From the NCBI RefSeq assembly GCF_000430745.1, contig NZ_AUMP01000047.1:1-18529 (forward strand): DNA of 18,529 nt, given 5' to 3'. The stretch's first letter is position 1; every line of letters starts with the position of its first letter. This DNA is from Fictibacillus gelatini DSM 15865. GTDB taxonomy: Bacteria; Bacillota; Bacilli; Bacillales; Fictibacillaceae. Below the pieces are notes generated by a model. That model did not search any database. It was not told the DNA's origin and saw only the letters and a list, made by a program, of their open reading frames with translations. Made by a program: the position numbers and the translations under genes. Shown here in pieces: positions 15,868-16,482 of the stretch.

Positions 15868-16482
15868 ATGAAAATCAGGGAACTTTTGGAGTTAACCCAA
15901 ACTATGAAGTTGGCCGACATTGCAAAAGAACATTTAGAAATGGGAGAGAAACCCGCCAGGGAAGCACTAAAAAAAGCCGGTTGTTATTCGATTAGTGGTA
16001 AAAAAGGTTGGTTCTTTGACGGTGATGACAATGTACTAAATCAGTCAATTTATGATTTTGCACCACCTAAAAGGATTAATCGAACTAAAGCTAAGGCGAA
16101 CGTTTCAACTAACCAACGAAAGAACGAAAGTTCTAAAGAACCAATGAACGAACAAACGTTAGAACCAACGTTCCAACGTTCGAACGTTGGAACGGAAGAA
16201 ATAAATCAAGGCAAGGCAGAAATAGCTACAACGGCAACAAAAGAGCGAACAAACGTTGGAACGTTGGAAGGTTCGAAGGTTGGAACGAAAGAACTAAACA
16301 AGAAAAGAACTAACGAACGTTCCAACGAAAGAACGAATGTTGTTAGGAAACGTGCCTCTTTTGATATCGATGAAAAATTGCTTAAGCAGTTGAAAATTCA
16401 AGCTGCCACCCACGACAAAACCATTTATGAAATGGTGGAAACTGCGATAAAGAACTATTTAGCTGAATTAAAAAATCTATAA
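15868..16482 (+). CDS. DNA-binding protein with a C-terminal ribbon-helix-helix domain and a repeat-containing linker
   Basis: The C-terminus RASFDIDEKLLKQLKIQAATHDKTIYEMVETAIKNYLAEL fits a CopG/RHH fold. The central region is low-complexity (RSNVGTEE, RTNVGTLE, SKVGTKE, RTNERSNERTNV). I prefer ATG 15868 (GGAAGGAG upstream). The track start at 15841 is TTG. Confidence 0.7.
   Translation: MKIRELLELTQTMKLADIAKEHLEMGEKPAREALKKAGCYSISGKKGWFFDGDDNVLNQSIYDFAPPKRINRTKAKANVSTNQRKNESSKEPMNEQTLEPTFQRSNVGTEEINQGKAEIATTATKERTNVGTLEGSKVGTKELNKKRTNERSNERTNVVRKRASFDIDEKLLKQLKIQAATHDKTIYEMVETAIKNYLAELKNL
16099..16327. repeat. Array of eight AACGTT palindromes with 8-bp register and CGTTGGAACG/CGTTCCAACG 10-mers, inside the RHH gene
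   Basis: AACGTT starts at 16099, 16155, 16167, 16175, 16183, 16252, 16260 and 16316. CGTTGGAACG is at 16185-16194 and 16254-16263, with a 9/10 copy at 16278-16287. Its reverse complement CGTTCCAACG is at 16169-16178 and 16318-16327. Confidence 0.8.

Follow-up and report, generated by a model that had tools for sequence, protein, structure and literature searches.

Why is the middle of a small plasmid gene crowded with copies of a single palindromic hexamer, AACGTT, and what might such a stretch do besides encoding protein? The question arises in Fictibacillus gelatini DSM 15865, on contig NZ_AUMP01000047.1, whose positions 1–18,529 (18,529 nucleotides, here called the window) make up most of a ~22.4-kb conjugative-plasmid-like replicon, and it concerns a gene at 15868–16482 whose product has a predicted ribbon-helix-helix (RHH) domain at its C-terminus. 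A first, sequence-only reading had proposed that the gene contains an array of binding sites for RHH proteins. We give a probability of about one half to the view that 16082–16342 is a cis-acting array, lying in the codons of the protein's linker, coated cooperatively by RHH dimers of the gene's own product and serving plasmid maintenance, self-repression or both.

Tetramer boxes in the codons of a disordered linker

Eleven AACGTT copies occur in the whole window, eight of them within the host gene (starting at 16099, 16155, 16167, 16175, 16183, 16252, 16260 and 16316) and three outside it (1472, 2174 and 17569), as the sequence-only reading had listed them. Dinucleotide shuffles of the whole window gave 6.1 copies per 18.5 kb, so that ~0.08 would be expected in the 229-bp span, and by our own arithmetic the Poisson probability of eight copies there is roughly 3e-14. 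The 8-bp spacings and the longer repeats that had been described were found in place, namely the 10-mer CGTTGGAACG at 16185 and 16254 with a 9/10 version (CGTTGGAAGG) at 16262, and the 10-mer CGTTCCAACG at 16169 and 16318. Consistently with the translation, and with the earlier claim that the motif is read in all three frames, codon phase 1 is used three times (Asn-Val), phase 3 three times (Thr-Leu/Phe) and phase 2 twice (Arg-Ser).

When the region was printed in an 8-bp register, the full feature proved larger than the hexamer array. Over ~260 bp (16082–16342) we mapped 33 tetramer boxes of the form SAAC, or GTTS when inverted (S, G or C), split into two blocks of ~110 bp, and AACGTT arises where a GAAC box adjoins a GTTS box. 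The box unit is S-AAC-(G)-W-W-N (W, A or T) on a 4/8-bp lattice; spacings are multiples of 4 bp, with 8 the commonest, and every codon position is used. The lattice phase moves by +1 bp across the gap between the blocks, block 2 opens on its left with a near reverse complement of the sequence that closes block 1, and Tandem Repeats Finder reported five overlapping period-8 arrays in the region. A lattice score peaked here alone in the window, with 12/16 positions filled versus a shuffle maximum of 3–4. The features of the gene are as follows (ORF, open reading frame; pLDDT, predicted local distance difference test).

15868–16482, + strand: host gene, 204 aa, monocistronic, encoding an N-terminal winged helix, a disordered linker and a C-terminal RHH domain (ORF, translation, AlphaFold2, 92 homologues)
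15868–16062, + strand: codons of the N-terminal winged-helix-like domain, aa 1–65 (pLDDT ~95 in the full model, 90.6 when modelled alone; topology H-H-H-beta-beta)
16082–16193: lattice block 1, 17 SAAC/GTTS boxes, 17/17 on a single 4-bp phase, mostly 8 bp apart, direct and inverted (box map, 8-bp register print, Tandem Repeats Finder period-8 arrays)
16169–16194: perfect 26-bp palindrome, CGTTCCAACGTTC followed directly by GAACGTTGGAACG, in which block 1 ends on its dense side (found as inverted repeat I10, whose 13+13 nt arms adjoin without a spacer and are 100% complementary)
16195–16234, + strand: box-free gap between the blocks, encoding the semi-conserved linker peptide EEINQGKAEIATT (box map; peptide conserved in alignment A1)
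16235–16342: lattice block 2, 16 boxes, 15/16 on one 4-bp phase (box map; inverted repeats I1, I3 and I6)
16345–16479, + strand: codons of the C-terminal RHH domain, aa 160–204, with the predicted base-reading strand RKRASFDID (AlphaFold2 pLDDT >90)
15782–15867, + strand: native promoter-proximal 86 bp, kept after insertion of a resistance cassette described below and without a lattice box (junction mapping against the cassette-free contig L016; upstream motif scan)

The peptide does not force this pattern. In 5000 synonymous recodings of the linker peptide with the window's codon usage, AACGTT occurred 0.85 times on average and at most 5 times versus the 8 observed, and the recodings gave 13 boxes and a lattice score of 5.4 versus the observed 33 and 12; none equalled the observed values, and none reached the lag-8 autocorrelation of the window. 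Codon-order shuffles of the linker likewise fell short. The 26-bp palindrome has one exact match in the window, and a promoter and terminator scan, otherwise uninformative, marked it as a terminator-like element of the minus strand simply on account of its symmetry. The separate idea of an AclI or methylation site adds nothing, because most boxes are not AACGTT.

The lattice begins 215 bp inside the ORF and coincides with the codons of a variable linker (aa 72–159), the poorly conserved central part of the gene. In an AlphaFold2 model of the host protein built with 80 homologues, aa 79–155 were disordered (pLDDT about 40), while aa 157–204 scored >90. A Foldseek search matched the C-terminal domain to CopG (1ea4; template-modelling score 0.81, root-mean-square deviation 1.2 A, probability 0.99), followed by CdbA, MatP and Arc. 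The predicted structure has an N-terminal beta-strand and then two helices, in line with the RHH/MetJ-Arc fold, and together with the solved-fold match it confirms, on the evidence of the model, the C-terminal RHH domain that had been proposed from the sequence. A PHROG match to an Arc-like repressor (E=7.7e-5) also falls on this domain. The N-terminal domain had no Pfam or PDB sequence match and no significant fold neighbour among PDB structures; profile scans detected no other RHH among the window's ORFs, and a defence-system search returned nothing for the host gene. Winged helix-turn-helix (wHTH), linker and RHH define an unannotated protein family, whose members current pipelines label 'hypothetical' or 'CopG family'.

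Homologous genes and copies outside the linker

The 92 homologues (134–217 aa) are found mainly on small Bacillaceae plasmids, including 3–4 kb cryptic plasmids, and also on 38-kb phage-plasmids; about 45 loci were collected for DNA comparison. In the alignment both domains are conserved and the middle differs in length (34–96 aa) and in sequence, and the lattice persists in homologues with differing linker peptides. The array idea would have suffered if homologues had kept the peptide repeats and lost the hexamers; the comparison came out the opposite way. In 25 distinct genes other than that of the window, AACGTT occurred 34 times in 4.1 kb of linker DNA versus 60 times in 130 kb of flanks, that is, 8.2 versus 0.46 per kb. 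Base autocorrelation of the linkers peaked at lag 8 (or 4/12/16/24), not at 3/6/9. Counts of box distances in 17 homologous genes, the window excluded, gave 89/61/47 AAC-to-AAC pairs at 8/16/24 bp and 46/40/33 at 4/12/20 bp, with nearly none elsewhere; AAC-to-GTT distances fell at 4k-1 and GTT-to-AAC distances at 4k+1. Lattice positions 2 and 3 were occupied by A or T in about 98% of the tetramers overall, the unconstrained ones among them. The information content by lattice phase is partly circular, because the blocks were defined from boxes, and we relied only on this W-W rule at unconstrained tetramers.

Codon choice follows the motif. Asn-Val is encoded as AACGTT in 26/41 cases in linkers versus 5/37 in other ORFs, and linkers use AAC for Asn in 66% of cases (30–37% in other ORFs), ACG in 32% (17–19%) and CCA in 67% (37%). 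Among five Bacillus cereus-group plasmids of one clade, synonymous divergence was lowest in the linker (0.106), with 0.162 in the RHH and 0.281 in the wHTH codons; in clade 1 the linker and the RHH remain associated, whereas the N-terminal domain is mosaic (7–30% divergence). Clades that are only 40–60% identical have the same box. Thus, as far as sequence comparison goes, conservation of the lattice acts at the DNA rather than the peptide level, as had been claimed, with the codon skew and the failure of recoding to reproduce the pattern pointing the same way. Some homologues show in-frame 24-bp (8-aa) repeats in the linker, and a distant Exiguobacterium homologue is without the lattice. For pEspA, replication regions have reportedly been mapped, the ORF responsible not being named.

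Base recognition by RHH proteins is a function of their N-terminal strand. All 18 genes encoding an RKR[AS]SFD strand carry 5.0–11.5 boxes per 100 bp (18/18), whereas those with other strands, KK[VA]TYE (4 genes), RGFYW (3) and KKVSLD (1), are at background, with 1.0–4.1 boxes per 100 bp. Because the genes with other strands share the N-terminal domain but bear different linker repeats, the array tracks the C-terminal and not the N-terminal domain. Locus L038 has at 884–1120 a 12-bp lattice in which ACCAGTAC/ACTGGTAC run in both orientations, the linker of L010 (1531–1687) contains four copies of TAGCAAGCAA, and L037 has the linker repeat CAGTAAAAnCTA (1757–1883), which suggests, at the sequence level, that a linker repeat array is a general trait of the family with swappable specificity.

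Copies of the motif also lie outside the linker. Two diverged phage-plasmids, those with the weakest intragenic lattice, have the sequence GCGAACGTTTCAAC, which encodes the conserved linker peptide 'ANVST', at -38/-47 relative to the gene, in flanks that have themselves diverged; an upstream motif scan found no box upstream of the gene in the window and most homologues. The Lysinibacillus irui plasmid NZ_CP113528 carries a free-standing copy of the array alone (L006, 6340–6425) ~900 bp downstream of an intact homologue, in an IS6-flanked region; the similarity of this copy to gene linkers breaks off precisely where the array does, and it has a higher lattice score (9/16) than the resident gene. 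Both the GCGAACGTTTCAAC sites and the stand-alone array would fit recognition by a protein.

Several contexts of the homologues are of interest in themselves. The phage-plasmid-like contigs (L045, 1243–1525; L047, 8517–8785 and 7300–7420) have two sets of repeats: ~12 (T)ACCGGTA(T) repeats in the intergenic region between the homologue and an Alp7A-like actin ATPase gene, probably an alp7C-type centromere, and, upstream, five ~22-bp ACGGGTTTTTTGTGTGGGCTA iterons that adjoin a Rep_3 gene. The 53-kb metagenome contig JGI25330J36431_1000044 (L031–L035) has five homologue copies at an exact spacing of 11,433 bp, probably because a circular plasmid of 11.4 kb was concatenated during assembly. An identical 61-aa Cys-rich ORF (MGICCGECHVELK...) precedes copies of the gene flanked by insertion sequences (IS) on large Peribacillus contigs (L041, 5819–6004; L042, 356–541; L049, 7819–8004), overlapping the start codon by 4 bp, and is missing from the window.

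Putative self-binding and the role of the array

From the covariation with the strand type we infer that the RHH domain binds the array within its own gene, and we propose, with similar reserve, that binding is cooperative and has a biological role. The sequence-only reading therefore stands in part: DNA-level conservation, the RHH fold and the geometry of known arrays favour it, whereas the unit is a degenerate SAAC/GTTS lattice and not the AACGTT hexamer, and its binding claim is one that covariation suggests. Each RHH dimer would read one box, or one AACGTT dyad, through its RKRxSFD beta-ribbon, and dimers may bind side by side every 8 bp, up to about 14 per block, in a cooperative coating. 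The complex could form a centromere-like or pairing assembly that marks the plasmid, maintenance being its most likely use, and the same complex might act as a roadblock that limits transcription of the gene itself. On its long tether, the N-terminal winged helix would be free to contact other DNA or a host factor, and the linker peptide, in which N, T, E, R, P, Q and K abound, may be for the most part a side effect of reading the lattice in three frames.

Known RHH arrays give this scheme its shape. On the type Ib plasmid TP228, ParG binds parH/OF, each array of ~100 bp having 8–20 degenerate 4-bp boxes with 4-bp spacers in direct and inverted orientation; one dimer occupies each box, coating is cooperative, and the array tolerates box inversion (PMC3130281). 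The window shares the 4-bp boxes, the 8-bp period, both orientations and ~100-bp arrays, the likeness on the binding side being by analogy. In contrast, parH/OF lies upstream of parFG and has the box ACTC, whereas the window's array is intragenic and built on SAAC, and ParG works with the ATPase ParF and bears a flexible tail at its N-terminus, whereas the window protein has a predicted folded winged helix on a ~90-aa linker and no ATPase was detected. Omega (ParB-pSM) of pSM19035/inc18 is a Firmicute plasmid RHH protein that binds 7–10 contiguous heptads in either orientation, with a dimer per repeat; contiguity matters, and the array is both centromere and operator (PMC9499535). A short-repeat array on a Firmicute plasmid with an RHH protein is common to both systems, and the host protein gives a weak, sub-threshold Omega_Repress match, but omega has a 7-bp WATCACW unit at promoters and a delta ATPase, and the window has an 8-bp unit within a gene.

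The metbox consensus is a CG-centred palindrome, and the AACGTT-centred units 8 bp apart in the window resemble the metboxes of MetJ. One MetJ RHH dimer binds each 8-bp metbox, and two or more adjacent units are needed (PMC3228920). Unlike the window's system, MetJ is a chromosomal metabolic repressor with 2–5 promoter boxes and the corepressor S-adenosylmethionine (SAM), and it has no plasmid role, intragenic sites or long arrays. Cis sites within the gene of their own binder include oriLambda in gene O, the origins in RepA_N rep genes, and parS in parB/spo0J. The present repeats are like these in lying in the coding sequence of a putative binder, in a poorly conserved segment between domains; those proteins are helix-turn-helix (HTH) or winged-helix initiators or ParB, with 16–22-bp sites, none combines an RHH with a 4/8-bp lattice, and a profile search did not place the host protein in the origin-in-gene families. 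A single-protein segregation system with no plasmid-encoded nucleoside triphosphatase (NTPase) is that of pSK1 Par. StbA of R388 is another small plasmid DNA-binding protein with a repeat array and no plasmid NTPase (bioRxiv 10.1101/2022.04.29.490116). Both StbA and pSK1 Par differ from the host protein in that their repeats lie upstream of the gene and are recognised by an N-terminal HTH, and no homology between them and the host protein was detected. Our literature searches turned up neither this family nor an RHH array or centromere inside a gene. What is known, then, is a cis site inside its binder's gene and, separately, arrays of RHH boxes; what is new is their combination, with a linker peptide apparently dictated by the lattice.

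A maintenance role is favoured by the size of the array, by the portability of a one-gene module across plasmid types, and by the position of the gene in the maintenance region of phage-plasmids, between Rep_3 and Alp7A. The 33 boxes are contiguous short repeats sized for one RHH dimer each, as in a partition centromere, and no other partition system was detected in this element. Several points weigh against our preferred reading. No ParA, ParM or TubZ partner was detected in the element: the window and L015–L017 (the rest of the element) had no Pfam family of the three, the six-frame translation of the window had no ParA-type Walker A, and no cognate NTPase adjoins the monocistronic gene. The phage-plasmid Alp7A cassette (L045/L047) comes with an adaptor and TACCGGTA repeats of its own, which means that the protein does not serve that Alp7A as centromere-binding protein. 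The gene also occurs on 3–4 kb plasmids, where active partition may be needless. Most homologues hold 7–16 boxes versus 33 in the window, and boxes every 4 bp in the densest part cannot be simultaneously occupied. In sequence searches all curated RHH families stayed below their thresholds for the host protein (bits, with cut-offs in brackets: 56B_RHH 17–22 [27.2], Omega_Repress 16 [33.3], RHH_1 13.6 [20.5], PrgO 16 [100]), and one homologue only, P0068, passed that of 56B_RHH. The covariation comes from just 3–4 independent clades, and co-inheritance alone could yield it, because the linker and RHH codons are physically adjacent.

A bolder variant, which we regard as speculative, makes the gene a one-gene segregation or positioning module without a plasmid ATPase, with the centromere in the linker codons, RHH dimers coating it, and winged helices on ~90-residue tethers attaching the whole to the nucleoid or to host machinery; the need to translate the lattice would then be the main reason why the linker peptide exists. 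We also think it unlikely, though credible, that the array is an autoregulatory operator and nothing more, the RHH domain repressing its own gene as an intragenic roadblock while the winged helix does the real job and neither segregation nor pairing occurs. RHH proteins are classic autorepressors, the OF site of ParG and the omega sites double as operators, a partner ATPase was not detected, and the single GCGAACGTTTCAAC of the phage-plasmid clade is at a typical operator position; as a sequence feature, this promoter-proximal copy in one clade points toward autoregulation. Yet the window and most homologues have no upstream box, the array starts 215 bp into the ORF, its 33 boxes over 260 bp far exceed the needs of repression, and the L006 array stands without a gene to regulate; self-repression, plausible as it is, cannot be a gene's sole purpose. 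A replication origin inside an initiator gene, with the boxes as iterons and the protein as Rep, is improbable, because other Rep candidates always co-occur and no initiator family matches. It would account for repeats in a poorly conserved gene centre between conserved domains, for homologues on small plasmids typed without a known replicon, and for the gene adjoining the origin region in phage-plasmids, and there is a weak match to PHROG 6643, 'replication initiation protein' (E=1.2e-3), over the linker, but this covers low-complexity sequence only. Every context examined has another candidate for the initiator: HTH_36+DnaD_N in this element; in L047, Rep_3 (Rep3_N/Rep3_C), which comes with 22-bp iterons of its own; and, on the 3–4 kb plasmids, a RepL/MarR-like protein of 229 aa. 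The host protein had no RepA_N, Rep_3, Phage_rep_O or DnaD match in Pfam or NCBIfam, the 4-bp lattice is unlike 17–22-bp iterons, and we know of no initiator that resembles a wHTH+RHH protein of 134–217 aa.

Since self-binding rests on inference and the winged helix is a second potential DNA-binding domain, the array might instead be bound by that domain, by another plasmid protein or by a host factor, but this is very unlikely: genes with a shared N-terminal and a different C-terminal domain lack the lattice, the clade-1 mosaic separates the N-terminal domain from the linker and RHH, no other RHH is detectable in the window, and 8-bp tandem geometry is characteristic of RHH proteins. We hold it highly improbable that there is no DNA-level function at all and that slippage in 8- or 24-bp units built a low-complexity linker selected for peptide composition only. 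The variable length and predicted disorder of the linker, the in-frame 24-bp repeats of some homologues and the unusual expansion of the window's array would suit such an origin; slippage, however, cannot make inverted boxes that keep lattice phase, synonymous choice is motif-directed beyond anything seen in recodings or codon-order shuffles, synonymous divergence is lowest in the linker, and the box recurs between the distant clades and at non-coding positions. The least likely explanation we considered is a single-strand structure, either an mRNA hairpin acting on translation or stability or a single-stranded DNA hairpin of the lagging-strand origin or oriT type that would act during conjugation. 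Folding of the window segment is much stronger than that of its shuffles (z=-4.6 and -4.8), it has the perfect 26-bp palindrome and long-range inverted arms, the element is conjugative, and RHH proteins are common as relaxosome accessories. Against this, the homologues have a median z of -0.27, with values below -2 in 3/22 only, Rfam gave no match, the relaxase-like gene is about 9 kb off, and homologues are found on replicons without conjugation genes. The gene is thus neither placed beside the relaxase-like gene nor confined to mobilisable elements, whereas an RHH relaxosome accessory would be expected next to the relaxase gene or nic site of such elements. For an RHH antitoxin, too, the expected signs were absent: there is no co-transcribed toxin, and the neighbours had no toxin-family matches.

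If the array is bound by the product of its own gene, site and binder in one ORF would form the most compact plasmid cis/trans module known to us, one that moves between 3-kb cryptic plasmids, a 22-kb conjugative plasmid with a qacH disinfectant-resistance cassette and 38-kb phage-plasmids. Such self-binding would carry the logic of tetramer boxes and heptads, known from the RHH segrosomes of ParG and omega, into the interior of a gene, and it would show in nature a disordered linker with an amino-acid sequence fixed by a three-frame lattice of DNA sites; under the one-gene-module variant it would be an extreme case of dual coding, with DNA-site selection dictating protein sequence. One DNA stretch appears to act as protein code and as putative protein-binding site, which would bear on how low-complexity linkers and synonymous-site constraint are read.

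The element and its other genes

The element encodes a type IV (T4) coupling protein, TrbL_4 and a relaxase-like ORF (5926–6612), with VirB4-like and TraC-like genes on its remaining part, and HTH_36+DnaD_N is its Rep candidate. Three assemblies give contigs of 22.4–22.5 kb in which the host gene is identical, and the gene is 100% identical in five other contigs. Its neighbours are a divergently oriented gene for 222 aa and, converging on it, the end of the type IV secretion system (T4SS) operon. In a Megablast search against PLSDB the window matched only at the end of the qacH cassette, with no match to positions 1–14000, and a phage search at the protein level found no match.

This cassette (14367–15781; 1415 bp) carries qacH, a quaternary-ammonium efflux gene of the small multidrug resistance (SMR) type, and a TetR gene, and was inserted 86 bp upstream of the start codon. 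It has a 6-bp target-site duplication (TCATAG, 14361–14366 and 15782–15787) and imperfect ~38-bp terminal inverted repeats beginning GGGGTAG, and looks like a transposase-less mobile insertion cassette. It is present in the window and one other contig and missing from three otherwise identical contigs; its end is 98–100% identical in plasmids of Bacillus, Listeria, Enterococcus, Paenibacillus and Priestia.

Elsewhere in the window, a 256-aa Cys-rich (CxxC) protein without a Pfam match is encoded at 2227–2997 (- strand). Its 173-aa homologues occur together with the RHH gene on 7.5-kb B. mycoides-type plasmids (L001, L004 and L008), which makes it a second gene common to those plasmids and this element. 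A 196-aa NYN-domain protein (11846–12436, - strand) matched the PADLOC candidate defence family HEC-09 (E=1.2e-20). Just upstream of the promoter region of the host gene, a 57-aa hydrophobic ORF (14090–14263, + strand) is followed by a terminator, and in a sister contig a 27-aa Hol_Tox (type I toxin-like) ORF was called nearby (L017, 4708–4791, - strand).

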